From NCBI GenBank assembly GCA_020057885.1, contig JAGVEX010000019.1, positions 84,045 to 148,044 on the forward strand: a stretch of 64,000 nt of DNA. Reading direction: 5' to 3'. The position numbers were made by a program, and so were the translations under genes. Shown one piece after another: positions 4,261-63,702 of this stretch. The first letter of the stretch is position 1. Each line of letters opens with the position of its first letter. The stretch comes from a bacterium (GTDB taxonomy: Bacteria; Patescibacteriota; Patescibacteriia; Veblenbacterales; UBA10138). Below the pieces are notes generated by a model that was not told where the DNA came from, searched no databases, and saw only the letters and a program-made list of their open reading frames with translations.

Positions 4261-4337
4261 AAATGTATTATCCCTTTATTTAATTAGATTCGCAAGAAAC
4301 AAAAAGAGAAGTTTTAAAACTTCTCTTTAAACATGTC

Positions 4338-12221: not shown

Positions 12222-13997
12222 GTGTTCCGTCGTATTGTGGCAAGGTTAACCCATAAATTATGGCAACTTTTCTACGGCCACGACGAAACCAATGTTAATC
12301 ACGCTTTAAATCTGGTTAGTGCTAAACCGCTGCCAACTTGGCGACAGTTTACTTTAATTAACCGCATTTTTTCTAATCAAGAAAAAAGAATAACCCTAAG
12401 TTTATTAATTCTTTGTTTAATAAGCGGATCTTTCTTAGCACTACGATGGTTTAATAACCATACCACTTTACAGCCAAAAACTGGTGATGAATATACAGAG
12501 GGAATAATCGGCACACCAAGCACAGCCAACCCCTTACTTGCTAATAGTACAGCCGAATTGGATCTGGCTCGCCTTACACATCGTGGACTTTTAAGCCATG
12601 ATTCAAATGGAAATTTAATTGGCGATCTAGCTGAGACCTGGGAAGCAAGTTCCGATTTAAAAACTTACACCATAATCCTACGCCCCGACTTACGTTGGTC
12701 CGACGGCGAACCTTTAACTGCTCTTGATGTAATTTTTACTTTTCAAAGCTTACGCGATATAAATCAAAATAGCACTTGGTCGCGCAGTTTACGTGATATC
12801 AAAATAACCACTGAAGGGAATCTTAAAATAATTTTTACTCTAAAAGAACCTTACTATTACTTTCCGCAAACACTCACTTTAGGGTTAATACCTGCTCATA
12901 TTTGGCAAAGTATTCCAACGGCACAGTGGTTAGACACAGAAACAAGCCTAAAACCAATAGGCAGTGGGCCTTATCGTTTTAAAAGCTTAAATTACGATCA
13001 ACAAGAAAATCTAAAAAGTTATATTTTAGAAGCTAATCCTTTTACTCATACTAAAGCTCCACACTTAACTAAAATAACTCTGCGTTTTTACGACGATACC
13101 CCAAGCGTGCTGGAGGCTTTACACCAAGAAGCTGTTGATGGCGTAGGTGGTATTACTATACAAAACGGTACAAGCTCACGTAAATTTAACACTCTTTCTT
13201 TACTCTTGCCTCAATACACAGCGATTTTCTATAATTCTCAAACCAATGAACTTTTTGAAAATAAATCTATTCGCCAAGGATTAAGTTATGCTGTAAATCG
13301 CTCACTTTTAGTAAAAAAAGATTTACCAAACCAAACTATACCAGCCCGCGGACCATTTACTTGGGGAGAGGAAAAAACACAAACTGCCAAATATACTATT
13401 TCCTTTAATTTAGCTAAAGCTAAAGAATTATTTACCAGTGCTGGTTTTGTACGTGCTGATAAAGCTGAATTTTATACTAAAAATGGACAAATACTAGAAT
13501 TTACCTTGACTTTGGCTAATCAAACTGAGTTCATAACTATGGCGGAAGGTTTAAAACAACAATTGTCTGAGGTGGGCGTGAAAATTAACCTTAATTTAGT
13601 AGAACCGTCTTCGCTTTATTCTGATATAATTAAAACACGAAATTATCAAGCTCTTTTAGCCAAAGAAATAATGGGGCTTGATCCTGACCCTTACCCTTTT
13701 TGGCACTCTTCACAAAGCAACGCTCCGGGTCTTAATTTGGCCAATTTCCAAAATCGTGAAACCGATGGATTGCTCACTGAAGCACGGCAAACTGCTGATA
13801 ACAAAATACGTTTAGAAAAATACATGCGTTTCCAAGAAATTCTAAGTGCTGAAAGCCCAGCGACTTTTCTCTACAGTACCAATTATAATTACACTTTAGA
13901 TAAAGACATACAAAATATACCTAACAATATTATTGGCGAACCTGCAGACCGTTTTAATAATTTAGAAGATTGGTATCGCAATACCACTAGACAATAA
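12222..13997 (+). CDS. ABC-transporter solute-binding protein, family 5 (peptide/nickel type). It has a membrane anchor and no cognate permease genes in the window.
   Basis: 591 aa with an N-terminal transmembrane segment and the SBP_bac_5-type layout ('TANPLLANSTAELDLARLTHRGLL'). Confidence 0.5.
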   Translation: MFRRIVARLTHKLWQLFYGHDETNVNHALNLVSAKPLPTWRQFTLINRIFSNQEKRITLSLLILCLISGSFLALRWFNNHTTLQPKTGDEYTEGIIGTPSTANPLLANSTAELDLARLTHRGLLSHDSNGNLIGDLAETWEASSDLKTYTIILRPDLRWSDGEPLTALDVIFTFQSLRDINQNSTWSRSLRDIKITTEGNLKIIFTLKEPYYYFPQTLTLGLIPAHIWQSIPTAQWLDTETSLKPIGSGPYRFKSLNYDQQENLKSYILEANPFTHTKAPHLTKITLRFYDDTPSVLEALHQEAVDGVGGITIQNGTSSRKFNTLSLLLPQYTAIFYNSQTNELFENKSIRQGLSYAVNRSLLVKKDLPNQTIPARGPFTWGEEKTQTAKYTISFNLAKAKELFTSAGFVRADKAEFYTKNGQILEFTLTLANQTEFITMAEGLKQQLSEVGVKINLNLVEPSSLYSDIIKTRNYQALLAKEIMGLDPDPYPFWHSSQSNAPGLNLANFQNRETDGLLTEARQTADNKIRLEKYMRFQEILSAESPATFLYSTNYNYTLDKDIQNIPNNIIGEPADRFNNLEDWYRNTTRQ

Positions 13998-18059: not shown

Positions 18060-19100
18060 TCAACAAGTAAGTGCAACACTTGGTAAAATCCAAGCATATG
18101 ACACAATACCAACAATTAACCATTGAGGAACGAGAAAAGATACAAACAGGGTTGTGGGAAAGGAGATCGTTACGGGATATCGCCCGACTGCTTGGCCGAA
18201 ATGTCTCCACTATCTCCCGAGAGCTTCAGCGGAATACAGCAGGCGAGCGAAGACGCTACGTCCCCCGCTTAGCTGAAGAGCGGACACGAAGACGAATACA
18301 AGCACGTGGCCAAAGGGAACGACTGAAGTGTCCTCTCATACGTGAATATGCGATTAGGAAACTGAAAGATGACTACTCACCCGAACAAATCGCTGGCACG
18401 CTCTCAATCGAGCATCTGGCATATTCAATCAGCCCTGAGGCAGTCTATCAATTCATTTACGCGCAGTATCGGAGAGGCGGGTACGGACGGTGTCTTGGAG
18501 AAGACTTACGAGTTTACTTGAAACGCAAACACAAAATCCGCAAATTAAAATATGCGCTGTTCAAAGCAGTCAAAGGGCCAATAAAGAACCGTATTTTCAT
18601 TGATTATCGACCGCAAGAAGTCACCACTAGAATCATCTGCGGTCACTGGGAAGGCGACTCCATGGTGTCCCGTCAGAGCTCGGCTGGTTTAAATACACTG
18701 GTCGAACGAGTTACGGGGCTTATGCTTATCACTAAGATTCAAAACACCACGGCAGCTGAAACGACACAGGCGGTTATCCAACGGCTGAAACGTTTTCCGA
18801 TGAGGCTCCGTCAGACAATCACGGTTGATAACGGCCATGAGAATGCCGGACACGAAGACATTGTGAAGAGGATCAAAACAAAAATATTCTTTGCGCATCC
18901 GTACCATTCTTGGGAACGGGGAATAAATGAAAATGCCAACGGATTGATCCGTTGGTACTTACCGAAGGGAACTGACTTTGCTACAGTGAATGAAGAGCGC
19001 TTGAGAGAGATTGAATATAAACTCAACACCAGACCAAGAAAGCGGCTTGGCTGGAAAACACCACTCCAAGTTTTTAATCAGTGGGTGTTGCACTAGAATA
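18060..19100 (+). mobile_element. IS30-family insertion sequence (about 1.04 kb) nested inside the IS481-family transposase gene
   Basis: It contains one IS30 transposase gene. Candidate terminal inverted repeats share 'gtgcaacac' (18071-18079) and 'gtgttgcac' (19085-19093). Confidence 0.65.
18071..19096 (+). CDS. IS30-family DDE transposase (the real start is probably the ATG at 18098)
   Basis: N-terminal HTH ('LTIEEREKIQTGLWERRSLRDIARLLGRNVSTISRELQRN'), 'GHWEGDS', and the DDE region 'DNGHENAGH'. Confidence 0.85.
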   Translation: MQHLVKSKHMTQYQQLTIEEREKIQTGLWERRSLRDIARLLGRNVSTISRELQRNTAGERRRYVPRLAEERTRRRIQARGQRERLKCPLIREYAIRKLKDDYSPEQIAGTLSIEHLAYSISPEAVYQFIYAQYRRGGYGRCLGEDLRVYLKRKHKIRKLKYALFKAVKGPIKNRIFIDYRPQEVTTRIICGHWEGDSMVSRQSSAGLNTLVERVTGLMLITKIQNTTAAETTQAVIQRLKRFPMRLRQTITVDNGHENAGHEDIVKRIKTKIFFAHPYHSWERGINENANGLIRWYLPKGTDFATVNEERLREIEYKLNTRPRKRLGWKTPLQVFNQWVLH

Positions 19101-26110: not shown

Positions 26111-26138
26111 TGTATCAATGTGTTAACACATTGATACA
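26111..26138. promoter_or_regulatory. 28-bp perfect palindrome centred on GTTAAC ('tgtatcaatgtgttaacacattgataca'), a trp-operator-like site
   Basis: It lies just downstream of the TrpR-like gene. A related half-site lies in the divergent promoter region at 26492. Confidence 0.5.
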
Positions 26139-38257: not shown

Positions 38258-39523
38258 CTATTGTAATTTTACGCTTCTAAGCTTGCCACTGGTATCGGTA
38301 AAATAAAGTATTTTTCCATCCTGAGAAATTGTTAAATTAGTAGCCGTGAGAGCAGTGCCTGTTTCGTCTATTGGCTCAGCCACCAAAGTGGTAGAACCAG
38401 TTTGCAAATTAACACGATAAATATAATCGGGAATATTATTGGCCATCTCACGTGTAAAACCAGCGCCTTCAGGCAACTCCTTGGGCACCGCGCAATAAGC
38501 CACCTCACCAGATAAATTACATTTATCCGACCAAGTAGCCAAACCTAAAGACTGTTTGTTGGAACCCACACTATCTGTAGCGGCATCTACCAGCCATAAT
38601 TCTGGTTTATAATTTGTTGTATCACTATAAACAGAATAAAGTAGTTTTTTACCATCGGGTGTCCAATTCGACTCAAAGCCCCGGCCATCAACTGTTAATT
38701 GCGGAAAATTTTCCCCATTTAAACCTATCAAAAGAACATTTTGTTGAAACAAGCCAGCTGGCTCACCAGTGCGCGACAAGGCCACTACTTGATTATTAGG
38801 AGACCATTCAACATCAACTTTATCAGCATTTTCGCCCATTGCTTCTATACCGGTAAGCCCCGAACCGTCTGGATTTACTGTAGTAATCCAATTATTAGAT
38901 AAACTATCCCCTAAATACTTACCGGCGATTTTTTGTCCATCACTCGAAAAAGAAAATTCAGTCATCTCTTTGGGCAAAGTATATTGTTTTTTACTCTGGA
39001 AATCATATAACACATTCGCGCCATCGGGAAATTCTAAAATAGCGCTATTGCTACTGGGTGCCCAAGTAACGGTTTGAACCTGGGGATATAAGGCGTCGGT
39101 TAAAAGACTTTTTGCACCGTCTGGAGAAATTTCATAAAATTTACCATCAGCCGCGTTATAATAGCGAACACTATCTCCGGTAGCACTGGCAGGAAACATT
39201 GTTGAGCCGCTAGTTAAAGCTGTAGCGGCTGTGGCACCACCAACAGCCACTGGCGAACCAGGTTGATTTGTTAAACCAGCATTAACATTAACGTTTACAT
39301 TTACATTAGAAATCGGCAAATTAACTCCGCCTGGACCACTTACATTAACATTGCCGTTTGTGGTAGGAGGAAAACCGGTTGGGCCATTTACGTTAACATT
39401 ATTATTGGGCAATGCTTGTTCTGATTTAGTAAATAAAATAAACAATAACCAAGCTAAAACACCAATAGCTATTACAACACCAACTGTTAATAAAATTTTA
39501 CGACGATCAATATTCTCAAACAT
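38258..39523 (-). CDS. TolB-like beta-propeller (PD40-repeat) protein with an N-terminal transmembrane anchor and an (NVN)n low-complexity linker
   Basis: Transmembrane helix, 'NVNVNGPTGF...NVNVNVNVNAG', then repeated 'DG.K..Y' propeller-blade motifs. Confidence 0.45.
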   Translation of the reverse strand: MFENIDRRKILLTVGVVIAIGVLAWLLFILFTKSEQALPNNNVNVNGPTGFPPTTNGNVNVSGPGGVNLPISNVNVNVNVNAGLTNQPGSPVAVGGATAATALTSGSTMFPASATGDSVRYYNAADGKFYEISPDGAKSLLTDALYPQVQTVTWAPSSNSAILEFPDGANVLYDFQSKKQYTLPKEMTEFSFSSDGQKIAGKYLGDSLSNNWITTVNPDGSGLTGIEAMGENADKVDVEWSPNNQVVALSRTGEPAGLFQQNVLLIGLNGENFPQLTVDGRGFESNWTPDGKKLLYSVYSDTTNYKPELWLVDAATDSVGSNKQSLGLATWSDKCNLSGEVAYCAVPKELPEGAGFTREMANNIPDYIYRVNLQTGSTTLVAEPIDETGTALTATNLTISQDGKILYFTDTSGKLRSVKLQ

Positions 39524-39531
39524 ATACTAAT

Positions 39532-40149
39532 TTATTTAAGATAGCTTCTCATTTGTTTCAGCAACTCAGTTTTTACTTCGGACCAATTGATGCGTTCCAA
39601 AAGAATGGGGTTAGGTTCACGTTCGGCTTCAACGAAATAAACCAAACTTTTAAGCAAATGGAGATGATTATATTTTACACCTTTATACTTTTTATCAAAC
39701 CAATCTAATAACTGTTTCAAAGAATAAACGCGCAATAACACATACAAATCAAAAAAATCTTTGCGACTGCCTCGGCTAGAAATGGCTTGCAGTTTCATAC
39801 AGCCAATATCGGCTGGTGCGGCCAAATTTACTCCCTGATAAGATACTAACCGACGCAATAATTTATAAGGATAAAAAAGAAAACTTAATCTTATTCCAGC
39901 CAATCTAATATGCAAAGTACCAATGTCTTCTGAGACAACTGTTATTTTACCAATTTTAGATAGTTGCCTTTTAAGTAAGTTCGAAGAAAATTTATGCGCT
40001 GAAAACCAATCAAAATCCAGCGATTGCCTGTGGCCACACTGCAAAGCCAGGGCTGTTCCACCAGCCATATACCAATCTCCATTTTTTAAAATTCCTCCTA
40101 ACTTAGGCAGTAATCTTTTGGCAGTTGGTAGCAAAATTTCTTCATGCAT
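39532..40149 (-). CDS. AbiEii-family nucleotidyltransferase (type IV toxin-antitoxin toxin-like)
   Basis: 'MAGGTALALQCGHRQSLDFDWF' matches the AbiEii / DUF1814 N-terminal nucleotidyltransferase motif. 205 aa. Confidence 0.65.
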   Translation of the reverse strand: MHEEILLPTAKRLLPKLGGILKNGDWYMAGGTALALQCGHRQSLDFDWFSAHKFSSNLLKRQLSKIGKITVVSEDIGTLHIRLAGIRLSFLFYPYKLLRRLVSYQGVNLAAPADIGCMKLQAISSRGSRKDFFDLYVLLRVYSLKQLLDWFDKKYKGVKYNHLHLLKSLVYFVEAEREPNPILLERINWSEVKTELLKQMRSYLK

Positions 40150-40159
40150 ATTACTAACC

Positions 40160-40453
40160 TCATTTTTTAATAACTACCTTCCATAACGCCTTACTTTTAG
40201 CATCAAGCTCACGAGTTTTAACAATAACGTTATACAACAAACTTGGGGAATATATTTTTTTTATAACCTTCCAATCCCCAATATCGCCAAATTGCAAAAC
40301 ACGTTTAATAATAAAAGCGCTATGCTTTTTAGGTTTTAACGTTTTGGTTGCTATATCCCAAAAAAGACCTTGTGAAAATTTACTACTAAATAAGCTCATA
40401 TATAAATTATAGCATATTTTAATTGTTTTTACAACCTTTGCGGCTTTTACCAC
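40160..40453 (-). CDS. Small protein upstream of the AbiEii-like gene. It may be the cognate antitoxin.
   Basis: 97 aa, 10 nt upstream of the toxin-like gene on the same strand. No family recognised. Confidence 0.3.
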   Translation of the reverse strand: MVKAAKVVKTIKICYNLYMSLFSSKFSQGLFWDIATKTLKPKKHSAFIIKRVLQFGDIGDWKVIKKIYSPSLLYNVIVKTRELDAKSKALWKVVIKK

Positions 40454-40511
40454 TACTTACAATACACGCGCAAAAATCCAAAACCTAAATCACTTTAAAT
40501 TATCAACATTA

Positions 40512-40537
40512 CACATTGTGACGGCCGTCAAAAAGTG
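40512..40537. repeat. GC-core palindrome P2 ('cacattgtgacggccgtcaaaaagtg'), the left border of PaaX-like cassette 1
   Basis: Perfect 12-bp core 'tgacggccgtca'. The arms match apart from two mismatches. It sits within a left flank that is about 85% identical to 63515-63593. Confidence 0.55.
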
Positions 40538-40559
40538 TTATATTGATTAAAGGAATATA

Positions 40560-41108
40560 TTGTTAACAATATTAATGATAATTAATTTTATGGAACAACT
40601 AAGTCTAACAAAACAAATCCTTCTTACCTTACTCGATGGGGCTTCTGAATTAAGAGGCATGCATAAAAATATGAGACTTATATCTCCTTTTCGCGGCATA
40701 ACCAAAACGCCAAATTATTATGTATCGCTTGGACGACTCAAACGGCGTGGTTACATAAAACAAATAAATAATAACTATTATTTAACTTTACAGGGCAAAC
40801 AATTAGCGCAACATTTACTTGTCAGACAAGCTCTTAAGATAAAAAGCCAACGTTGGGACGGGCAATGGCGTATGGTGTGTTTTGATATTCCAGAAAAATT
40901 AAGACGCGAACGAGCGGCTTTACGCAATTTTCTTTATCGTTCCGGATTTCGAAAATTACAAGAAAGTGTCTGGCTAACACCATATGACGTAATAAAAGAA
41001 GCTGTTGACACATGGAAAGAACTTGGGCTGGCGCCTTATGTTCGCACAGCGCTTATAAAATCGCTTGATAACGAAATTGAATTTAAAAAACTATTTAAAC
41101 TCACCTAA
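40560..41108 (+). CDS. PaaX-like protein with an N-terminal winged-helix and a C-terminal Cas2-like motif (cassette 1)
   Basis: The N-terminal half looks like a wHTH. The C-terminal half has 'WRMVCFDIPEKLRRERAALRNFLYRSGFRKLQESVWLTPYD', a Cas2/PaaX_C-like beta-alpha-beta core. It is a paralogue of ORF 53388..53939. Confidence 0.55.
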   Translation: MLTILMIINFMEQLSLTKQILLTLLDGASELRGMHKNMRLISPFRGITKTPNYYVSLGRLKRRGYIKQINNNYYLTLQGKQLAQHLLVRQALKIKSQRWDGQWRMVCFDIPEKLRRERAALRNFLYRSGFRKLQESVWLTPYDVIKEAVDTWKELGLAPYVRTALIKSLDNEIEFKKLFKLT

Positions 41109-41204
41109 ATCACGACGGTCGTTATTAAATTTTAAGTAAATTAAAACAACTTACTTAATATTAAGTAAGTTGTTAATAAATTTATAACTTTTTTATCTAT
41201 CTAA

Positions 41205-41230
41205 CACTTTTGGTCGGTCGACCAAAAGTG
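41205..41230. repeat. GC-core palindrome P3 ('cacttttg-gtcg-gtcg-accaaaagtg'), the right border of cassette 1
   Basis: 9-bp arms 'cacttttgg' / 'ccaaaagtg'. The centre is the palindrome 'ggtcgacc' carrying a 4-bp 'gtcg' tandem duplication. Confidence 0.55.
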
Positions 41231-41289
41231 TAAGGTTTAAAAAATAAGGGTTAATAATAGTTTAAATTAAATAAATTGTTTAGACTAAA

Positions 41290-41372
41290 ATGTTCAAGCT
41301 AAAATTCCAATAGCTATTACAACACTAATTGTTAATAAAATTTTACGACGATCAATATTCTCAAACATAAAT
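41290..41372 (-). pseudogene. Duplicated 5'-fragment of the TolB-like gene (24-codon remnant)
   Basis: About 90% identical to 39450-39523. It encodes 'MFENIDRRKILLTISVVIAIGILA' then a stop. Confidence 0.45.
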
Positions 41373-43285: not shown

Positions 43286-43377
43286 AATATTAGTGAATTA
43301 CGAATCATGAATCACGAATTAACAATTAAAAATAAATTCAGTATTCAGTATTCGTGATTCGGTATTCAAAAATCAAA
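43286..43377. repeat. Intercistronic heptad-repeat hairpin ('gaattac gaatcat gaatcac gaattaa ... ttcagta ttcagta ttcgtga ttcggta ttcaaaa')
   Basis: Strict 7-nt periodicity. 'gaatcacgaa' pairs with 'ttcgtgattc'. It fills the whole spacer between two minus-strand genes. Confidence 0.5.
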
Positions 43378-43941: not shown

Positions 43942-43960
43942 AAAATAATTAATAAAAGTT

Positions 43961-44110
43961 AATAAAATCCTAAATCTTAAATCCTAATATCTAAATAAAT
44001 TTTAATAACAGAAAATTTAATTAAATTATTTTGTTTTTAGATTATGTTTGTAAATTTTACGCATTGGGAATTGGGAATTATTTAGGGTTTAGACATTAAG
44101 ATTTGAAATT
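43961..44110. promoter_or_regulatory. About 150-bp intergenic repeat unit (copy A). It holds 'TAAATCC'-type heptads and 'cattgggaattgggaatt' and also occurs at 46808-46945.
   Basis: Copies A and B are about 85% identical by eye. On the minus strand the heptads read 'tagatat taggatt taagatt taggatt' and sit upstream of the ATG at 43941. Confidence 0.45.
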
Positions 44111-44188
44111 TATATTATATTCTTTAATCCACCTGCAACAATTAATTTAATATTCTTAATTCATGGTTCGGTATTCGTGATTCTAAAA

Positions 44189-46797: not shown

Positions 46798-46807
46798 AAA
46801 ATATAAA

Positions 46808-46945
46808 TTAAATCCTAAATTCTAAATCCTAATATCTAAATAAATTCCAATACCAAAAACCAATTTAATTATTTTTAGATTACACTTATCAATTTTACAC
46901 ATTGGGAATTGGGAATTATTTAAGATTTAGACATTAAGATTTAAG
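46808..46945. promoter_or_regulatory. About 150-bp intergenic repeat unit (copy B) with 'TAAATCC' heptads, ending 13 nt before the VirB4-N ATG
   Basis: See copy A. The minus strand reads 'tagatat taggatt tagaatt taggatt taattta'. Confidence 0.45.
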
Positions 46946-47418: not shown

Positions 47419-47458
47419 AGGTGAAAGTAAGTGTAAGAGTATTGAGTAAGAGTAAAAA

Positions 47459-47803
47459 TTAATTAGCCATTAAACCAGTTAACATGCGAGCTATTTCTTC
47501 ACTTTGTTGATAAATGATATCAAATCTAGGTTGCGTTATAAGTGATTTATCTACTAGCAACATACTTACGTTGATAACTTCATAAACTGAACCTTTGGCA
47601 ATATTGTAAAAATTATTTGCTTCTTTTTTAGATTTTCTGCCACTACCCTCAGCAATGTTATTAGGCACCGAAATAGCTGCTCTAATTAAATTATTGCCTA
47701 TAGTATAACGATAATCATTTGGTAATTTTTTAACGTCATCTATTATGTCGCTACAAAACCTTTGTGATTTTTTCCATACTTCTAAGGTTTCAAATTTAAA
47801 CAT
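47459..47803 (-). CDS. Four-helix-bundle protein (TIGR02436 / '23S rRNA intervening sequence protein' family)
   Basis: 'FETLEVWKKSQRF', 'NIAEGSGRKSKKE' and 'IAKGSVYE' signatures. 114 aa. Flanked by 'GTAAGAG' heptad repeats. Confidence 0.7.
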   Translation of the reverse strand: MFKFETLEVWKKSQRFCSDIIDDVKKLPNDYRYTIGNNLIRAAISVPNNIAEGSGRKSKKEANNFYNIAKGSVYEVINVSMLLVDKSLITQPRFDIIYQQSEEIARMLTGLMAN

Positions 47804-47829
47804 ACTCTTACTCTTAACTCTTACTCTTA

Positions 47830-50052
47830 CTAAAATCTTATCTTCTGATTAAAATCTATTATGGCGTTGAATTCGGCTTCGGAAAGTGTTTGTTCGCCTT
47901 GTGTTTGCAAACTAGCCACTATTTCAACAATTGATTTTTCTTGTTCAATGCTAGCTCGGCCTAGTTTTAAATAGAGTTGGTACACAGGCGAAGCTTGCCA
48001 AGAACGCACTGCTTCCACCCGCCGCGATACTGAAGTTTCGCCAATCAAATCTATTTTGGCTCGAACTTTATTCAAAGCCTCCACGGGCGATGAATCAAGC
48101 CTCCTAAAATCAACTAGGTTCAAACTTTTTAACTCTTCCAGTGGACCTAAGGTTCGTGGTGGCGCTTTAATATCTGTTAATTGTGGCCTAATGTTGTTAG
48201 TTGCTCCTAATTCTTGTCCACTTGTTCCTAATTTGGGTGGTGATGGGGGCTGTGCCCCGTGATCAACTACAGTTGATTTTACGGGGGGTGGGGGGGCGGC
48301 TTTGGAAATTTCTTTTAACAATTCCTCCCGCCAATTTTTAAATTTATCCTCACTAAGCGGCTTGTCTTCAATTTTAGTTGCTTGGGCAGCTACCCTAATA
48401 TCTGAACTCTGAATTTCTTTAGGATTTAGCCTGCCTGCGACTCGATTGAGCTCGCCGAAATCCGGTAGGTAGGGATTTTCGGATTTAGGATTTAATTCAC
48501 CAATCTTATCACTCTTGGGTAAAACCACTTGGGGGCCAGTGACCGGTGATGGAGGGCTAACAACTATTGGCTTATCTTCCCCCATTAATTTATCCAACTC
48601 GCTTTGCATTTTTTCCTGTTCTGTTTGTGGCTTACTATTTACCACTGGTGCAGGTTCTTGCTTCGTGATTCTTACTTCGTGATTCTTACTTCGTGATTCA
48701 AACTCACTTTTAGCATCTTCAATAATTTTTATAACTTGTTCTGTTTTATCAACCGGCAAACCTAAACCGCCCGAAGTTACTGGTTTTAATAATGTTTCGC
48801 GCACTTCCACCACATTGCGCACATCTTTTAAGTGTGATACAAACAAATTTATAAACCTGCGCTTGCCAACTTCGTCCTTAAAACTAAAATTATGTTTTTT
48901 AATTGTTTCATCGGCGAGCACTCTTAATTTTTCTTCTAATGTATTCATGATTCGTAATTCAGTATTCGGTATTCTTAATTTATCAACTTCTTTCTCATCT
49001 TCCAAGTTAAAAAAGAATGCCGGTTCAGTAGTTTTTAAGGCTTGAGGAACAAGTTGATTTGTTATTGGTGATACTAATTCTTCTGTCTGTACTCGTGCTT
49101 TGTAATCAGATGCAGTTAATTTTGTGGAGACTGGTCCTGAAGCAGACATTTTAACCACTGCTGGCGCTAACCGAACTGAAATTGGTAGCTCTGCCACCTC
49201 AGTTGCTATTGGTACAGGGACTATTCCAAATGATTGCTGGATAGTTATCGTATTATTTTTCTGTAAATCAATTTTACTTGCCTCTTTATTATTTAAAATA
49301 CTGTTTACTTTAGCGAAAATATCCTTAATACTATTTTCATTATATTCCTCAAACCAACCACCTTTCACCCAACCAGATTTAGCCCCGTCTATCGGAATAC
49401 TTTCCTCTAACCCCTCTAATTCAGTTGATAACAAATGGCAATGTTCATAAACATTTATCAAGTCTCTAAATTTGTCACGCGAGGCAGGTGACAACACCCT
49501 TAATAATTGCGATGAGGAAAAATACTGTTCTTGTTGATATTTATCACTTCTTTTATTGGCCGTAAATACTAAAAAATCTTTTAAAAAGCCGCCAACGGTT
49601 AGGTTGTTTTCTTTCCAATCTGGTAATCTTATTTTTTCTTGATTATTTAACAAAACGTCTATGATTTGTTTTTTTAATTTATTTCTATCTTCATAAACTA
49701 ATATACTTAATAAAGCGCTTTTAAATTTATTATTCAGTTTAAAATCTTCTATCTGCCACGCATCATTAATATGATAATGAAATTGTTCAACAATCTCACT
49801 TTCGTTTAACAATGATAATCCTACCCACTTGCAATGAGCGATGATCTTTTGATAATTACTATATAATTGACCAAACTTCGAATCAATTTTACTCTCTTTT
49901 AAACCAAACTCTAAAGATCTCGCTAATTTATAAGCAGACTCATAATCATCATACTTTTCTATATCACTCAAGCTAGTCAACATCTCCTGATAAACTACAA
50001 GCGATGTTAATGGATATTGTTCAATTAATTGTTTTATACTTGCCATAGACAA
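47830..50052 (-). CDS. Hypothetical cytoplasmic protein (740 aa) of the type IV secretion-like cluster, with a Pro/Lys-rich low-complexity C-terminal third
   Basis: No transmembrane helix or signal peptide. Heptad-type DNA repeats are embedded in the coding sequence at 48660-48700 and 48945-48980. Confidence 0.45.
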   Translation of the reverse strand: MSMASIKQLIEQYPLTSLVVYQEMLTSLSDIEKYDDYESAYKLARSLEFGLKESKIDSKFGQLYSNYQKIIAHCKWVGLSLLNESEIVEQFHYHINDAWQIEDFKLNNKFKSALLSILVYEDRNKLKKQIIDVLLNNQEKIRLPDWKENNLTVGGFLKDFLVFTANKRSDKYQQEQYFSSSQLLRVLSPASRDKFRDLINVYEHCHLLSTELEGLEESIPIDGAKSGWVKGGWFEEYNENSIKDIFAKVNSILNNKEASKIDLQKNNTITIQQSFGIVPVPIATEVAELPISVRLAPAVVKMSASGPVSTKLTASDYKARVQTEELVSPITNQLVPQALKTTEPAFFFNLEDEKEVDKLRIPNTELRIMNTLEEKLRVLADETIKKHNFSFKDEVGKRRFINLFVSHLKDVRNVVEVRETLLKPVTSGGLGLPVDKTEQVIKIIEDAKSEFESRSKNHEVRITKQEPAPVVNSKPQTEQEKMQSELDKLMGEDKPIVVSPPSPVTGPQVVLPKSDKIGELNPKSENPYLPDFGELNRVAGRLNPKEIQSSDIRVAAQATKIEDKPLSEDKFKNWREELLKEISKAAPPPPVKSTVVDHGAQPPSPPKLGTSGQELGATNNIRPQLTDIKAPPRTLGPLEELKSLNLVDFRRLDSSPVEALNKVRAKIDLIGETSVSRRVEAVRSWQASPVYQLYLKLGRASIEQEKSIVEIVASLQTQGEQTLSEAEFNAIIDFNQKIRF

Positions 50053-53061: not shown

Positions 53062-53291
53062 GGTAAAAATTAGTTTAAATAATATAAAATCAATAACTAA
53101 TACTATCTTATGTTATCTTACCACTAAATTAGGCAAATTAGTACTGTATTAGTACATTTATTATAACACAATTTTTAATTTCCAGCAACAATAATATAAT
53201 AACCCAATACTTACTTAAATTTTATTGGTCTTCACACCCTGCCTACTAATAAATAGAAAACGAAGCAGATAAAATATAACATCTTTCAATA

Positions 53292-53325
53292 TGCCAAAAA
53301 GTGTCCGGCCGGACACTTTTTGGCA
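53292..53325. repeat. GC-core palindrome P4 (34-bp perfect: 'tgccaaaaagtgtccggccggacactttttggca'), the left border of cassette 2
   Basis: Perfect palindrome with an A5 - GC hairpin - T5 layout. It is part of a roughly 45-bp direct repeat shared with 53973-54016. Confidence 0.6.
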
Positions 53326-53387
53326 CAATAGAGAAAGTGGTGCTAAAATATAATTATCAAAACTATTAAATATAACTCACTATTACT

Positions 53388-53939
53388 ATGACCAAAATTC
53401 CACCCCTCACTAAACTTCTACTTTATTGCCTGTTAAAAAGCGGGCAATCAATAATTGACTATGCCGTATTTATGCACGACCTTAGGCAATGGCGAGGATT
53501 ATATTCAATGGGTGGTAGTGCTCGTGTTAGTGAAATTAAAAAATTACAAAATATATCAAGCGCAAAAATCTGCCTGCGTAAGCTTAAAGAGGGTAAATTT
53601 ATCAAAGCGCGCAAAATTGGCAAAAAACTTATTATAGAACTTACAGACAAGGGGGTGGCTGCGACCTTAAGTGAACAATTGCGACAAGAAACTTTACTAC
53701 CGAGTGGCACTTACACGCTGGTGATTTTTGATATTCCAGAAACAGAGCGGGAGGCGCGGCGACATTTCCGCTGGCTACTGCGGCAAGGGGAATTTATTAA
53801 ACTGCAACAAAGTGTTTGGATAAGCAAGCATAATGTGCAAAATACAATTACCCAATTTGTAAAAAAATTAAAACTGGAAAAATGGGTTAATGTTGGTTTG
53901 GTAAGCAATTTGTTTACTGTGGCAAAAAATAATTTATAA
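53388..53939 (+). CDS. PaaX-like wHTH / Cas2-like-motif protein (cassette 2)
   Basis: 'YTLVIFDIPETEREARRHFRWLLRQGEFIKLQQSVWISK'. Same size and layout as ORF 40560..41108. Confidence 0.55.
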   Translation: MTKIPPLTKLLLYCLLKSGQSIIDYAVFMHDLRQWRGLYSMGGSARVSEIKKLQNISSAKICLRKLKEGKFIKARKIGKKLIIELTDKGVAATLSEQLRQETLLPSGTYTLVIFDIPETEREARRHFRWLLRQGEFIKLQQSVWISKHNVQNTITQFVKKLKLEKWVNVGLVSNLFTVAKNNL

Positions 53940-53978
53940 GGTCAATAAAATATCTACAACATACCTAAAATTATCAAT

Positions 53979-54014
53979 ATGCCAAAAAGTGTCCGGCCGG
54001 ACACTTTTTGGCAT
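53979..54014. repeat. GC-core palindrome P5 (36-bp perfect: 'atgccaaaaagtgtccggccggacactttttggcat'), the right border of cassette 2
   Basis: Perfect palindrome, a direct repeat of P4. Confidence 0.6.
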
Positions 54015-60100: not shown

Positions 60101-62477
60101 CAGTGGTAGGAATAAAATTCATATCATCATTTGTAGGTAAACATTCAAGCCCGCCGCAGGTAGCTGAAGTTTGACAAATACTGCCGTTATTTATACCACC
60201 ACAACGCAAATTCTGGTTAAAGAAACTGGAATTTTGCTGATAATTGTTATAACCAATACATTCATTGGGGCAAGTGTTGCCTTTAATGGCTGGAATATTG
60301 GGTGAACCGTCGGCTGGCGTATAAAGTTCACAACCAACATCATCAACCCTACAAGAATTTAAATAATTTTTGCAAAGCGCTGAATCGTTAGTAATGTCCG
60401 CGTCATAACAATTTAAGAAACTAGGTGCCTCGCGCAAAGTAACAGCTTGTACTTTGGCATATTGTTCATATGAATCAGTGCTAGTGGCAGGTGTAACTCG
60501 AGCCACTACATCATTAGCCAAACATGCCACATCACTTGTACCGCAGGTAGTACCAACCAAGGTCGACATATTAAAATTACTCAAGCGCAAAAATTGCGTG
60601 CATCCTTCAGCGCTGGATTCGCAGGCGTATGTGCTAAAATCTTTCAAATAAATTTTATCGTCAGCATTATAACGGTTAACTGGTATACTGGCCGCAGAAT
60701 TATAAGATTTGGAATACCAACGGCAACCAATTGAATCACTGGTACAAATACTATTTTCTCCTACCAATGAATTTTGTAGATAAAAATTCGTATTGCCGCT
60801 ACGACTGGTAAATGCCTGACAAGTAGCATAAGGGGAATAACCTGAGCCCGCTGGAAATTCACAACTATCGCCACTGAAACGCCAAACATTTTTTTCTTTG
60901 GTACAATAACCCCAGGCCTGACAATTACCATTATCATCTTCAGCTACACAATTTTGCGTATCAACGCAAATTTCTTGCCTAGTGCCACCTTCAGATTGCA
61001 ACTGTTGGCCACTGGCCTGAATGCGACATTGTGACTGAGGAGCTTTTAATACCCAATTAGGATCAATTAGATGATAAAAAGGGCTACCTAAAACATTAAA
61101 TCCATCCATTACTTGTCGCAAAGTATAACTGGTGCCGGCAAATTGTTTAGCGGCCATTTCCCAGCCAATTGGAATGATTCGCGCCCGGCGTAATTTTTTT
61201 AAATCTGATTCATACCATTTACTAGGCTGACTTTCTTGCTCAGGATGATCTTTAGCAAACACCCAACTGCCGTTAATAAGTTTTTTATTTTGTACGGCGT
61301 CGGCCACAGTAAGCGGCTGACCCGACTCAGCTGAACGCAAAGCCTGCTCAAAACCATTATCAATAGTACAGTTATTAAGCTCAGCAAATTTTCGTGGGCT
61401 AGGACAATTTGAAAACTCGCTGATAACATCAATTTTATCCACACTCTTAAGAGTGGGAGTGGAAATTGAACTATTTATTTGCATGGCGTAATCCACGCCA
61501 CTAATACTGGTATTGTTTGCGATTGGTGAAAATGTGCCGCTGGGATTTTTAACATCTCCCTCTAAAAGCCGTTTCATTAAACGAGAAGCTAGGGTATTGG
61601 TAAAAACACCTAAGGCGTCGGCCACAACATCCCCGGTATAAGTATTAAAATCTTTTAGGGCCTCACCAACAGGCGTATCAACTAATAATTTTTCAACTTT
61701 AGCAGCAGGAGTTTTTATAAAACCGGTAATTGGTTCAGTAACAGCCCTTATGCCCCCATTCATGGTGTCGAGTGCTTTTTGAACGGCTTTTTGATCCTCG
61801 GCTCGTGTTAATAAATCTTGACGCAAACTCAAACTTACGCCCAATTCATTTTGCCGTGGATCTATAGCATAACCAAAAGCCTGTTGCGCCATGCGGGGAT
61901 TTTTTAAATACTGATCCCAAGCCGCGCCAATTTGTTTTAAATTACAACGTGGTCTAGTAGGTCGTATTTCTTCAAATAAAGCCGTGGTAATAATAAGGTT
62001 AGCAGTAAAACCTGGTGGCCTACATACATCCAAACTTAAATAACCGTTCTCGGTAGCTATGGTATCTATAAAGTCACCAGCCGCATCATTCCAAGCGTCA
62101 GTAGCTGATTTACCTAAATTTTTCCAAGTAAATAAAGGTGTTTGTCCTTTGCCACCAGAACCTATCATTACCGCGGCATCATAAGCAATGCGATTGGCAA
62201 ACATTTTAGCTGCATTTTTAAAAGCCACGGCCGCGCCATGTTCCCATACCCATTCTAAAGATTTTGTAAGCCAACCTTTAGCCGCCTCTGCCTGTTGTGC
62301 GACAATTTGTAGCTGGATTGCTGCTAAAACCCCTGGATCAGTTACTGCCCACTGTGCTTGAGCGGATTTAGGAGTAAAAAAAGAAACACCAACTGTAGTA
62401 AAAATAACACTCAAAAATATTCCAGTAGTTAAAACGCGGAATAAGCGTGGGTGTTTATTTTTTAACCAAGAAGACAT
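54171..62477 (-). CDS. Giant (2768 aa) cysteine-rich secreted or surface protein with an N-terminal signal anchor
   Basis: One uninterrupted ORF. The N-terminus has a hydrophobic signal ('LTTGIFLSVIFTTVGVSFF'). Several hundred Cys, Gly, Ser, Thr and Asn residues suggest disulfide-rich beta-structure. A heptad array lies just upstream. Confidence 0.7.
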   Translation of the reverse strand: MSSWLKNKHPRLFRVLTTGIFLSVIFTTVGVSFFTPKSAQAQWAVTDPGVLAAIQLQIVAQQAEAAKGWLTKSLEWVWEHGAAVAFKNAAKMFANRIAYDAAVMIGSGGKGQTPLFTWKNLGKSATDAWNDAAGDFIDTIATENGYLSLDVCRPPGFTANLIITTALFEEIRPTRPRCNLKQIGAAWDQYLKNPRMAQQAFGYAIDPRQNELGVSLSLRQDLLTRAEDQKAVQKALDTMNGGIRAVTEPITGFIKTPAAKVEKLLVDTPVGEALKDFNTYTGDVVADALGVFTNTLASRLMKRLLEGDVKNPSGTFSPIANNTSISGVDYAMQINSSISTPTLKSVDKIDVISEFSNCPSPRKFAELNNCTIDNGFEQALRSAESGQPLTVADAVQNKKLINGSWVFAKDHPEQESQPSKWYESDLKKLRRARIIPIGWEMAAKQFAGTSYTLRQVMDGFNVLGSPFYHLIDPNWVLKAPQSQCRIQASGQQLQSEGGTRQEICVDTQNCVAEDDNGNCQAWGYCTKEKNVWRFSGDSCEFPAGSGYSPYATCQAFTSRSGNTNFYLQNSLVGENSICTSDSIGCRWYSKSYNSAASIPVNRYNADDKIYLKDFSTYACESSAEGCTQFLRLSNFNMSTLVGTTCGTSDVACLANDVVARVTPATSTDSYEQYAKVQAVTLREAPSFLNCYDADITNDSALCKNYLNSCRVDDVGCELYTPADGSPNIPAIKGNTCPNECIGYNNYQQNSSFFNQNLRCGGINNGSICQTSATCGGLECLPTNDDMNFIPTTAKSCVAQAVGCEEFTNVQNEAKEYYAELRQCIKLDTGEDHIYYTWVGSNLSGYQLKTWQLKAEDPTMPNSAPTTTDNSNIGSECGNGITPPTDFPSNPDCKQFYDTTGGIHYRYWSKTITASASCANYRATSINQNDCEASGGTWDASAVPPACFYNAIPQEGVICSAQYVGCREYRGPTADNIRLVFPITTFGDNEAGFSTDTTPTGGFTPGSNSNESTSAFGHSLYSGAGNSTITKDISGKVAKSKLYFLNFWIKSTAATSTISASINTNPLASLGSLPISGEWQVYTLGPVQLTADVPASLALTISSPASFYIDNVSLREIGDTFFVRKDTWVTPSTCTASDLRCAAYTNRAGTKTTLTDFSKICKVEAVGCEALVNTQNSSSPKSTVVTLPDPPALNIPADQVIYRVYDAKKSCAASAKACQRVGEPKLDSSGNVQDWSDKFVKLNPDTLGDTGAGSLLCSRAQDKCEQFTDSNSVTHFFKDPGNGVCEYKQLDSLRGYDWYKKGTTELCDLLDNPSFEKVNDVGDNLIADGDFENITVWPANWYSISPTDWNLSLSSDLIRDSHNGVQSIKDEFAGGDDAVRQNFDVIIGQAYTARVWVKADTGIRRTLNISGCGVNVSDYTEEAGVWEKLQLSFKPTTRTCLLQLNTSAGGSAVAGTAYYDNVTVNLSDAFSGWNINGPSGEETESAIFTAHESVAGQYWGSNVLEIESGAKIYAGIWSNDVKIESSSTPRYFTVSAHIYVPDIPQNRNFTSWQLTQQAVPHYDYEPGYDNIITSTEKGKWVYKQALIKIDPGVTQLSVGLITNGGVEQPVGSGNMICTPETCSTNQVIYVDQFSLSESQVPLAYLCPADQVSCKAFHDPELTKQTYYYLDNSKLDKKCTGVSKKEGCLLFTDLSSSQLTSNAAATYASSTGQNDKLIAPISAPPNNANIILKVSRDRVCGEWLACQSESTRFVSSKASSICYALGKCDAWGTSGSGVSKCSHWLTPPEDPQPLTLTNYQARATDWSGMDYSGYSIPDKYSIELLTQKNYSTDPLTTNIRLTYINNKVKRCGGTGDECNLPIGSSASPCNTVTTCQYEDKGATGLGPLDDKKLLSDNNTVIKACRAYPEKDSPFPTVVVKNWTPACEGSNCLPVGTANYIAVAKNKDADYKDANNCQNGEDCECSYSKAIYSGGQTLYYGFDTTKLQSMFYTQNDIDANTNQPVEVKSKIKTDNSFIGMKGYCLEQDTSRSINSGTAKACLTWLPLDTAAGEISVYNYAPEAGYTGGEIFYCSESIGNKVGSRGENYTYHAANGALANCNVAYIDYTADWRCYEFQDVRYCTNDFTLQNSELGSNYFCNNKDKRIEAAGEDIVIFSRVAEVGEENFYKADIETIYLPFQLFGGWGINPNFTLTTNSQEEYGRFYLNKGNDWCAGVKCDMNQQCDFNFTELADRCAKLTSNNILPPNTLIDGTQHNLDVAMNIHSLTNFDYAVIKAVFDSNDKFLGYNVIYSDGSPGTGSFVINGRETYLREYCTEAVQVASSASNKVWTDRVLRNTVYQVAPKTELGFTQSRNPSPYGKLSQAVDSGTSMLIMSDKPGVNITSSSGDFSTFPQSFFCENGCGTGYGICLSGQSNGILTIGKQCNKSADCGDSSAPVCMGYFNKVCEVGGVSGVRTTQLCQVDNDCNSGDTCTGYQGLGWGTSGIVRVQQLFAKIFDVLTWNTSTSRFTSPALPDIDSSSGLPGSLCSPSTNPPCYYNVPLAPSIKQVVFELNGTSTIEGNTGFTLQTPGGSFNNGEVVLASPAPISTLFYAYNPNGEQMPLTDVWVNWGDGSVLAGASGKYKNHKHMCEPATVKAKMCTNLADLGKLCANDTQCSSILNACKEGDVANPRYNFGDSSQACVQDTASGSLGYFGFTKVYTCSSSSLSYNPNSLGANQGACEFTPAVLVKDNWDWCLGSTGAKWGTPDCISNSSNLSASGWLKFNGIIKVKP

Positions 62478-62485
62478 ACTATAGT

Positions 62486-62520
62486 TAAATCCTAAATCCT
62501 AAACTCTAATTTCTAAACAA
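62486..62520 (-). promoter_or_regulatory. Heptad array ending 10 nt before the giant-gene ATG (minus strand reads 'tagaaat tagagtt taggatt taggatt taactat')
   Basis: Same motif family as the arrays at 16238, 46061 and 46808. Confidence 0.45.
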
Positions 62521-62631
62521 TAAATGAATTAATTAATTTAAGTTTTAAATTATTATTTTGAATGCTGAACTGTGAAAGTTAAATTATTTGGATTTTGTTT
62601 GACGTTTGAGCTTTGAATTTTGATATTTATA

Positions 62632-63381: not shown

Positions 63382-63567
63382 ATTTAAAACAATAATTTAA
63401 CTGAAAATTGATAATTTATCTAAATCAATTATATCACAGAACGGGGTAATTGTCAAAGTTAAAAGCTTAAATTCTAATCTGAAGCGCAACGCTTTGAAAG
63501 GGATAGACTCGTTTACAATATATGCGCAAAAATCCAAAACCTGAATCACCTTAAATCACCAATCTTA

Positions 63568-63593
63568 CACTTTGTGACGGCCGCCAAAAAGTG
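63568..63593. repeat. GC-core palindrome P6 ('cactttgtgacggccgccaaaaagtg'). It is a single copy in a locus homologous to both flanks of cassette 1, a putative empty site.
   Basis: 63515-63593 matches 40464-40537. 63594-63660 matches 41231-41300. No ORF lies between them. Confidence 0.5.
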
Positions 63594-63702
63594 TAAGATT
63601 TAAATTAAAATAAATTGTTTAAACTAAAATCATAATAGCTATTACGGCGCCAACTACTAATGAAGACTTTGTTGGCTTATCAACTCAGGATGAATTGCCT
63701 TA

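Follow-up and report, generated by a model that had tools for sequence, protein, structure and literature searches.

PaaX of Escherichia coli is an autorepressor that combines a winged helix-turn-helix (wHTH) with a dimerization domain and recognizes a 39-bp inverted-repeat operator, TGATTC-N27-GAATCA (PMC9493321), a spacing that marks widely separated half-sites as a trait of the family. In a 64-kb chromosomal stretch of a Patescibacteria (candidate phyla radiation, CPR) genome with a G+C content of 38.6% (the whole stretch is hereafter called the window), two genes, ORF1 and ORF2, encode shorter proteins of related architecture, and each is bracketed by copies of its own 28- to 40-nt palindrome with a CGGCCG or CGGTCG core. 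The reading that we favor, and to which we give about an even chance of being right, is that these are short PaaX-type autoregulated palindrome-binding regulators and that each gene can be excised by way of the sites on either side of it, a proposal built on sequence comparison.

Both proteins share with PaaX, the phenylacetyl-CoA-responsive repressor of E. coli and Pseudomonas (PDB 8a39), and with PaaX-like Rv0674 (3kfw) a wHTH followed by a Cas2-like middle domain. Autoregulation through a long inverted-repeat operator is known for PaaX, and the palindromes described here overlap predicted promoter hexamers. PaaX, however, has about 310 residues, whereas members of the ORF1/ORF2 family have about 175 to 190 and lack the PaaX_C effector domain; the family sites are, in addition, fully palindromic around a CG-rich core and occur upstream as well as downstream of the gene, and the family retains the aspartate typical of Cas2. 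No paa genes occur in the window, where the neighbors are a type IV secretion system (T4SS)-like cluster, a toxin-antitoxin pair, and housekeeping genes. Cas2 and VapD provide another point of comparison, as the β-α-β motif of ORF1 and ORF2, FD(I/V)PE...R..R..L...GF..LQ.SVW, aligns with FDMP...F..Q.SV of Cas2, although here the Cas2-like domain is fused to a wHTH. Neither cas1, other cas genes, nor a CRISPR array was found among the ORFs and repeats of the window, and a CRISPR-Cas context was rejected on this ground. A known defense system was also set aside, PADLOC giving weak Cas2 matches for the two ORFs (E about 1e-6) plus AbiEii for the neighboring toxin.

Genes bracketed by short palindromic sites have been described in other settings. 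In REPtrons, which pair repetitive extragenic palindromes (REPs) with REP-associated tyrosine transposases (RAYTs), a single-copy gene is likewise flanked by a palindromic element that is also found elsewhere, and the protein is presumed to recognize that element. RAYTs, however, are Y1 (HUH) transposases, which ORF1 and ORF2 are not, and the REPs on the two sides of a RAYT gene are inverted, with tens to hundreds of REPs in a genome, whereas solo copies are few here; a REP-like high-copy element is ruled out by the palindrome copy number in the window and in 1.2 Mb of related loci. Xer dif/pdif modules and integron cassettes likewise consist of genes bracketed by short, partly palindromic sites in direct orientation, with occupied and empty forms that differ by the gene plus one site, and the 11-6-11 layout of dif is similar to that of three palindromes in the window (P2, P3, and P6; Table 1). 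They differ in that no tyrosine recombinase lies in the window or recurs among the neighbors of family genes, and in that the arms differ between cassettes of one genome, which would not be tolerated by a single Xer pair or integrase; nor do ORF1 and ORF2 genes form cassette arrays, as those of integrons and pdif modules do. In the literature searched, we found no description of a bracket of cognate CG-core palindromes, of its spread through CPR, or of the presence/absence series reported below. The domain family itself is already in Pfam.

Domains of the ORF1 and ORF2 proteins and modeled fold of ORF1

ORF1 and ORF2 are lone plus-strand genes within a minus-strand type IV secretion-like cluster (~41 to 62 kb) of pilin-like, VirB4/TraG-like, TraC-like, and PrgI genes and genes for giant proteins; their isolated position on the opposite strand had been noted in the preliminary description of this DNA and is confirmed by the ORF and neighbor listing. 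The ATG at 40590 is the likely start of ORF1 because its orthologs have 172 residues. Profile searches place both proteins in PaaX_M (PF20803, "PaaX protein central Cas2-like domain"), with E values of 1.5e-21 for ORF1 and 6.5e-15 for ORF2 and scores of 76.7 and 55.4 bits against a Pfam gathering cut-off of 24, and the two are divergent paralogs with 24% identity. Neither reaches the cut-off of the PaaX equivalog model TIGR02277 (35.2 and 19 bits versus 264.6), and the Pfam profile search returned no match to PaaX_C in either protein, both of which end after the middle domain. Scores against the Cas2 model TIGR01573 (26.7 and 28.3 bits) exceed its cut-off of 24.5 as weak matches confined to β1-α1 (-β2), and those against Pfam CRISPR_Cas2 (19.2 and 23.2 bits) fall below the threshold of 23.8. 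Pfam matches of the two proteins are limited to PaaX_M, Cas2, and wHTH families.

An AlphaFold2 model of ORF1, built with 60 homologs (predicted local distance difference test score, pLDDT, 83.6), places a winged helix at the N terminus and a ferredoxin-like domain at the C terminus, a fold like that of the solved PaaX structures. When this model was searched with Foldseek, the top PDB matches were E. coli PaaX (8a39, E = 3e-5) and Rv0674 (3kfw), followed by many Cas2 chains for the C-terminal half (probability 0.9-0.99), and the N-terminal half matched IdeR/MntR-type winged helices. The aspartate at the Cas2 catalytic position (D99, in FDIPE) is invariant in 60 family members and is not found there in Rv0674. 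A Cas2/PaaX-like C-terminal half behind a wHTH N-terminal half, as suggested earlier from the letters of the sequence, is therefore borne out by the Pfam and TIGR profiles, the AlphaFold2 model, Foldseek, and PADLOC alike.

Palindromes beside the genes and across the family

Relatives of ORF1 and ORF2 are numerous. A profile search gave 6,564 family representatives at 50% clustering, mostly of 165 to 195 residues, and relatives are encoded on more than 587 stretches of species-representative genomes, nearly all of them Patescibacteria metagenome-assembled genomes, with automatic annotations as PaaX, Cas2, or PadR. We surveyed sites at 79 loci with 10-kb flanks (1.23 Mb), which hold 83 family genes in Patescibacteria genomes, counting as long even palindromes those with arms of at least 12 and as dyads those that lie no more than 200 nt from a gene and in which 13 or more of 15 mirror pairs match. 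Of the 96 long even palindromes, 66 lie within 300 nt of a family gene, and the center is CGGCCG, CGATCG, or CTATAG in 61 of these 66. Of 146 CG-NN-CG cores near family genes, 131 have flanks that are complementary at 6 or more of 12 pairs, 42 of them perfectly, against a background mode of 3 of 12. A dyad accompanies 46 of the 83 genes: 22 genes have one on each side, 11 have one upstream but none downstream, and 13 have one downstream but none upstream, compared with a background rate of 1.5% of 200-nt windows in the related loci. Dyad centers range from -19 to -180 upstream and from +15 to +81 downstream, the downstream sites beginning 1 to 50 nt past the stop codon.

These counts dispose of one explanation, namely that the palindromes are common hairpins of the kind found between genes in any AT-rich genome and lie around family genes by coincidence. 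Other plain terminator-like palindromes do exist in the window, at 4303, 17296, 34417, and 54101, but an enrichment of about 30- to 50-fold on both sides of the gene, together with shared cores and matching copies at each locus, refutes this explanation and leaves it with virtually no probability.

Within a locus, the near-identity of the two palindrome copies does not extend beyond the palindrome, and each locus has arms of its own. In sites aligned on the dyad, the CG-NN-CG core is conserved, position 4 from the center is T or C, and positions 8 to 10 are A/T, G or C being very rare at positions 9 and 10 and A and T both being accepted there; this A/T tract suggests that the duplex DNA has to bend or to take on a certain shape. 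The 28-nt sequence ACACTTTTTGACGGCCGTCAAAAAGTGT is kept beside proteins 33 to 47% identical to ORF1, and the same ACACTTTTTGACGGCCGTCA(A/G)AAAGTGT flanks homologs at two loci with differing gene contexts, L006 (47% identity to ORF1) and L088 (33%). Solo palindromes of the family type number about 12 in 1.2 Mb of related loci, or roughly one per 100 kb. The recurrence of this architecture in dozens of distant relatives, each with its own arms, substantiates the specific link between protein and palindrome that had been proposed from the window.

In the window itself, palindrome copies number three plus two plus one in 64 kb, five of them adjoining the genes. A common half-site, CAAAAAGTGT, occurs 18 times with one mismatch allowed, against 9.9 ± 2.8 times in shuffles, and it points inward in P2, P3, and P6 and outward in P4 and P5. 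P4 and P5 show the order A-run, stem, T-run, P5 having the form of a bidirectional terminator (A5-stem-T5), and P2, P3, and P6 show the reverse order. By consensus scan, the best promoter-like site of ORF1, TTGTGA-17-TATATT with a TG (40516-40544), overlaps P2, and that of ORF2, TTGGCA-18-TAAAAT with a TG (53320-53349), overlaps P4, the right arm of which supplies the TTGGCA; -10-like boxes also follow the upstream palindromes at other loci. The direct repeat around ORF2 had been given as 45 bp; 53286-53325 and 53974-54013 are indeed identical at 40 of 40 positions, but the repeat is imperfect beyond 40 bp. A 'gtcg' duplication in P3 had been suggested as a possible recombination scar, a view now ruled out, as CGGTCG/CGACCG is a core variant that recurs in L002, L092, L015, and L056.

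Coordinates of the genes, palindromes, and flanks are collected in Table 1. Within the window, no family gene lies near P7, and one Logan contig breaks inside this palindrome. Logan short-read contigs also end in or at perfect palindromes at L001, L002, L006, and L086; we rejected such contig ends as evidence of repeats, an assembly artifact of perfect palindromes being more likely. Upstream of the SHMT gene, an intergenic 28-nt perfect palindrome at 26111-26138, TGTATCAATGTGTTAACACATTGATACA, looks like the operator of another regulator.

Table 1. Positions in the window of the two family genes, their palindromes, and the flanks discussed in the text
Feature	Position	Strand	Description
ORF1	40590..41108	+	172-aa wHTH + PaaX_M (Cas2-like) protein; alternative TTG start at 40560
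ORF2	53388..53939	+	183-aa paralog, wHTH + PaaX_M
P2	40511-40538		Imperfect 28-nt palindrome with 2 mismatched pairs, ACACATTGTGA-CGGCCG-TCAAAAAGTGT, upstream of ORF1
P3	41204-41231 (extended 41201-41234)		ACACTTTTGGT-CGGTCG-ACCAAAAGTGT, downstream of ORF1
AT-rich palindrome	41145..41174		30 nt, past the ORF1 stop codon; probable terminator hairpin
P4	53290-53327		ATATGCCAAAAAGTGTC-CGGCCG-GACACTTTTTGGCATAT, upstream of ORF2
P5	53977-54016		Perfect 40-nt palindrome, ATATGCCAAAAAGTGTC-CGGCCG-GACACTTTTTGGCATAT, downstream of ORF2
P6	63567-63594		ACACTTTGTGA-CGGCCG-CCAAAAAGTGT, in the gene-less 63.5-kb site
P7	63703-63738		Solo 36-nt perfect palindrome GTACGGATTTATGTCCAGCTGGACATAAATCCGTAC, core CAGCTG, downstream of rsmA
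Cassette-1 left flank	40457..40510		Repeated at 63513-63566; upstream of the DUF6922/AbiEii promoter
Cassette-1 right flank	41235..41368	-	Holds duplicated PD40 5' fragment; partly repeated at 63597-63664
Gene-less copy of cassette-1 locus	63513..63664		Left flank + P6 + right flank
AbiEii toxin (39532-40149) and DUF6922 (40160-40399)	39532..40399	-	Lineage-specific pair between the pilin and PD40 genes

Occupied and empty sites at the pilin-PD40 locus

ORF1 and its two palindromes (cassette 1) can be compared with the same locus in related genomes, which form a series. At L095 and L096, where PD40 is 56% identical to that of the window, and at L093 and L094 (64%), the pilin gene is followed directly by PD40 with no insert, the AbiEii-DUF6922 pair being absent from all four. 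L097 and L098 (PD40 64% identical) have a PD40 5' fragment (PD40'), a single palindrome, a promoter, DUF6922, and AbiEii, with no PaaX_M gene; the palindrome of L097 (2532-2565) is perfect, GCGTACTTTTTATC-CGGCCG-GATAAAAAGTACGC. The window, L092, and L002 have the PD40' fragment, a palindrome, antisense ORF1, a second palindrome, and DUF6922, such that orthologs of ORF1 occupy the same locus in relatives with an 82% identical PD40 (L092 and L002). AbiEii is missing in L092, and both AbiEii and DUF6922 have decayed to remnants in L002. In the window, the PD40' fragment, a small ORF at 41294-41368, repeats the opening 24 codons of PD40 (39452-39523) with 93% identity, about 85 nt being duplicated; as these duplicates flank AbiEii, DUF6922, and ORF1, the block resembles an insert that displaced and replaced the start of PD40. 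Judged from these alignments, the AbiEii-DUF6922-ORF1 block is a lineage-specific insert in a conserved operon.

A gene-less arrangement is also present within the window, at 63.5 kb, where 63513-63600 matches 40457-40544 (86%) and 63594-63664 matches 41255-41339 (73-84%). The flank alignments agree with the preliminary description, which had seen here the left flank of cassette 1, one palindrome, and the right flank joined together. Because its outer flanks are shared with cassette 1, this site is a paralog of the cassette-1 locus and not a target in its own right. The left half of P6 is P2-like and its right side P3-like, the sequence then running into the P3-side flank, a hybrid form such as would arise if P2 had recombined with P3 or if the reverse event had taken place. 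The 150-nt unit sits in the intergenic region between rsmA and the gene for a 249-aa protein. It was considered as a miniature inverted-repeat transposable element with terminal inverted repeats and rejected, no inverted ends being found beyond shuffled controls. An integrative and conjugative element bounded by the 40.5-kb and 63.5-kb repeats was rejected as well, the T4SS-like cluster being syntenic with PD40-DsbA-RadA beyond it in four relatives. Hybrid arm types at L002 and L092 were not retained as crossover footprints, since the arm types differ by few bases and plain divergence is possible.

Occupied sites (the window, L092, and L002) thus differ from empty ones (L097, L098, and the 63.5-kb copy) by the gene plus one site. 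Deletion between direct repeats gives the same pattern and explains equally well the contrast between one palindrome and a gene with two. The preliminary description had named three outcomes as telling against its proposal, namely a lack of significant Cas2/PaaX_C similarity, related genomes with the gene always in place and no empty sites, and a 63.5-kb locus without correspondence to the cassette flanks; none of the three was found, and relatives with empty sites, which it had called for, exist both with one palindrome and with no insert.

Autoregulation, mobility, and RNA hairpins as possible explanations

From these observations we infer a scheme in which the N-terminal winged helix would read DNA and the Cas2-like middle domain would form the dimer, probably sitting on the dyad, with each protein recognizing its own long palindrome as double-stranded DNA. 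The site would consist of the CG-NN-CG core, the locus-specific arms, and, roughly one turn of the helix away from the center, an A/T tract at which the DNA may bend. The upstream palindrome, overlapping or abutting the gene's own promoter, would mediate negative autoregulation as in E. coli PaaX. The downstream palindrome, directly past the stop codon, could be a second operator that cooperates with the upstream copy through a loop of about 650 bp, and/or could insulate the gene by blocking transcription that enters from or leaves to neighbors, which would matter because family genes frequently run antisense to the operons around them. Additional solo copies (P6 in the window; L054 and L021 elsewhere) would put neighboring genes under the same protein, and the gene may be lost by recombination between its two direct-repeat sites, leaving one palindrome as at 63.5 kb and L097, and possibly regained likewise.

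Several observations sit uneasily with such autoregulated palindrome-binding regulators. A second operator right past the stop codon is unusual, and perfect palindromes of 36 to 54 nt far exceed usual operators in length and symmetry, each copy staying symmetric even where two copies differ. A pure dimerization role does not require the invariant aspartate at the Cas2 position, and a copy of the locus with its flanks at 63.5 kb needs a duplication mechanism that the regulator model does not contain. At L027, a 40-nt copy of the cognate palindrome lies in frame inside a coding sequence (12760-12799), and family genes are lone antisense genes 2.7 to 3.5 times more often than other ORFs (19 of 77 family genes, p about 0.001), which hints at insertion. 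The L027 coding sequence encodes a giant lamin-tail-domain protein, which has six additional residues relative to its L054 ortholog.

The last two of these points, the in-frame copy and the antisense excess, would be at home in a site-specific mobile cassette, in which the gene plus one palindrome inserts into or excises from a chromosomal palindrome via the conserved 6-bp core, catalyzed either by its own protein, with the wHTH recognizing the arms and the Cas2-like domain acting as a nuclease, or by a host recombinase. We consider this explanation unlikely, and a narrower form of it, in which the genes are new minimal mobile cassettes that enter and leave solo palindromes as the wHTH-Cas2-like protein breaks and rejoins the CG-NN-CG core or directs a host enzyme to do so, is slightly less likely still. 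Occupied sites should then carry two palindromes and empty sites one, as in the orthologous series from none through one to palindrome-gene-palindrome and in the paralogous 63.5-kb copy with its hybrid P6. The 11-nt arms around a 6-bp self-complementary core in the ORF1-type sites resemble recombinase sites, the core is conserved family-wide and the arms are variable, and a nuclease would suit both the Cas2-position aspartate and the scores above the TIGR01573 cut-off. Neighborhoods are very diverse (356 clusters among 453 neighbor proteins), and the same 28-nt palindrome flanks homologs in three different contexts. Yet the neighbor survey and the window annotation reveal no recombinase or transposase, either as a recurrent neighbor of family genes or close to the two genes of the window. 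Near-identical copies in different contexts were likewise not seen, and the window paralogs, at 24% identity, must be old. Upstream and downstream palindromes that differ are symmetric one by one rather than the left/right hybrids expected from a crossover at the core; the 63.5-kb site shares its outer flanks with cassette 1, unlike an insertion at an independent target; and every empty site is explained by deletion between direct repeats. The family is absent from viral contigs, where 0 of 94 candidate stretches encode a relative, and phage or viral carriage was rejected accordingly. Stable location argues in the same direction, as ORF1 orthologs keep their place, a ClpB-HtrA-linked subfamily keeps its context while its palindromes diverge, and the P0185 protein occurs in at least 24 contigs, always in the same place. 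The mobile or homing cassette put forward in the preliminary description therefore keeps its empty sites and its protein-palindrome link, but the former fit deletion equally well, and the missing recombinase and the age of the paralogs count against it. The regulator with duplicated operators, which had been offered there as the alternative, fits at least as well, given the analogy to the PaaX autorepressor and the promoter-like hexamers over P2 and P4; it nonetheless has to accommodate the points gathered above.

A different possibility is that the palindromes act mainly as RNA hairpins that mark the ends of the gene's transcript (terminators, stabilizers, or RNase III processing sites), the link to the protein being indirect or the Cas2-like domain binding RNA, which we regard as improbable. 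P5 and about a third of the family sites do have the form of an A-run, a GC stem, and a T-run, the downstream sites start close behind the stop codon, and differences between the arms of two copies are mostly symmetric. On the sense strand, G·T outnumber A·C mismatches by 17 to 7 downstream and by 8 to 6 upstream, and this weak G·T excess in the downstream sites leaves room for an added RNA-hairpin role there. On the other hand, two-thirds of the sites either have no T-run behind the stem or carry it on the opposite side from that of a terminator. The upstream copies in both window cassettes lie between divergent genes and upstream of a promoter-like site, such that the gene's own mRNA would not contain them. 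Nor does RNA offer a rationale for the A-or-T requirement at positions 9 and 10, and the conserved CG-NN-CG tip does not correspond to any known stable loop. A scan of the window against Rfam returned two tRNAs as the only matches above gathering thresholds and no match to the palindromes, ruling out a known RNA family as their identity. Generic bidirectional terminators were likewise rejected, as the canonical form is seen in about a third of sites, upstream and downstream alike.

The family, with about 6,500 clusters at 50% identity, is found almost exclusively in Patescibacteria/CPR, organisms with tiny genomes and few known regulators. If its members are regulators, they would probably constitute one of the main transcription-factor families of Patescibacteria, and the pairing of proteins with sites would form a sequence-readable code from which regulons could be predicted directly from genomes. 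If the cassettes are instead mobile, they would amount to a minimal mobile element of a new type and would give a Cas2-like domain a role beyond CRISPR; a Cas2 relative that acts site-specifically on DNA would also bear on the origin of Cas2. Under either reading, the two-palindrome bracket, the conserved CG-rich core, the retained Cas2 aspartate, and the length and symmetry of the palindromes are the puzzles to be explained. Perfect palindromes probably break short-read assemblies as well, fragmenting CPR genomes at family loci.

Other features of the window may be noted. Its gene content includes uvrA, uvrC, uvrD, folD, recG, and radA and genes for RNase J, SHMT, an MPG glycosylase, and a DsbA-like protein. 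A 341-aa protein (18071-19096) has an HTH_38 domain like that at the N terminus of IS30-type transposases, with no transposase core domain detected in it at E ≤ 1e-5. Within the T4SS-like cluster, 29-nt inverted repeats made up of GTAAGAG/CTCTTAC heptamers (47426-47454 and 47803-47831) enclose a minus-strand 23S-rRNA-IVP/bAvd-like gene (47459-47803); this gene is absent between homologous neighbors in L093 and L095 and represents a second small lineage-specific insert in the operon. Repeats of 60 to 150 nt, 64 to 85% identical, lie directly upstream of three minus-strand T4SS-like genes (43954-44104, 46799-46942, and 62476-62536) and hold runs of a TAAATCC heptamer, suggesting that they may be a common promoter or leader. 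Short tandem or dispersed repeats of ATTCGTGATTC / TTCTTACTTCGTGA occur in and between genes of the cluster at 43317-43373, 44140-44182, 48655-48699, and 48938-48980.

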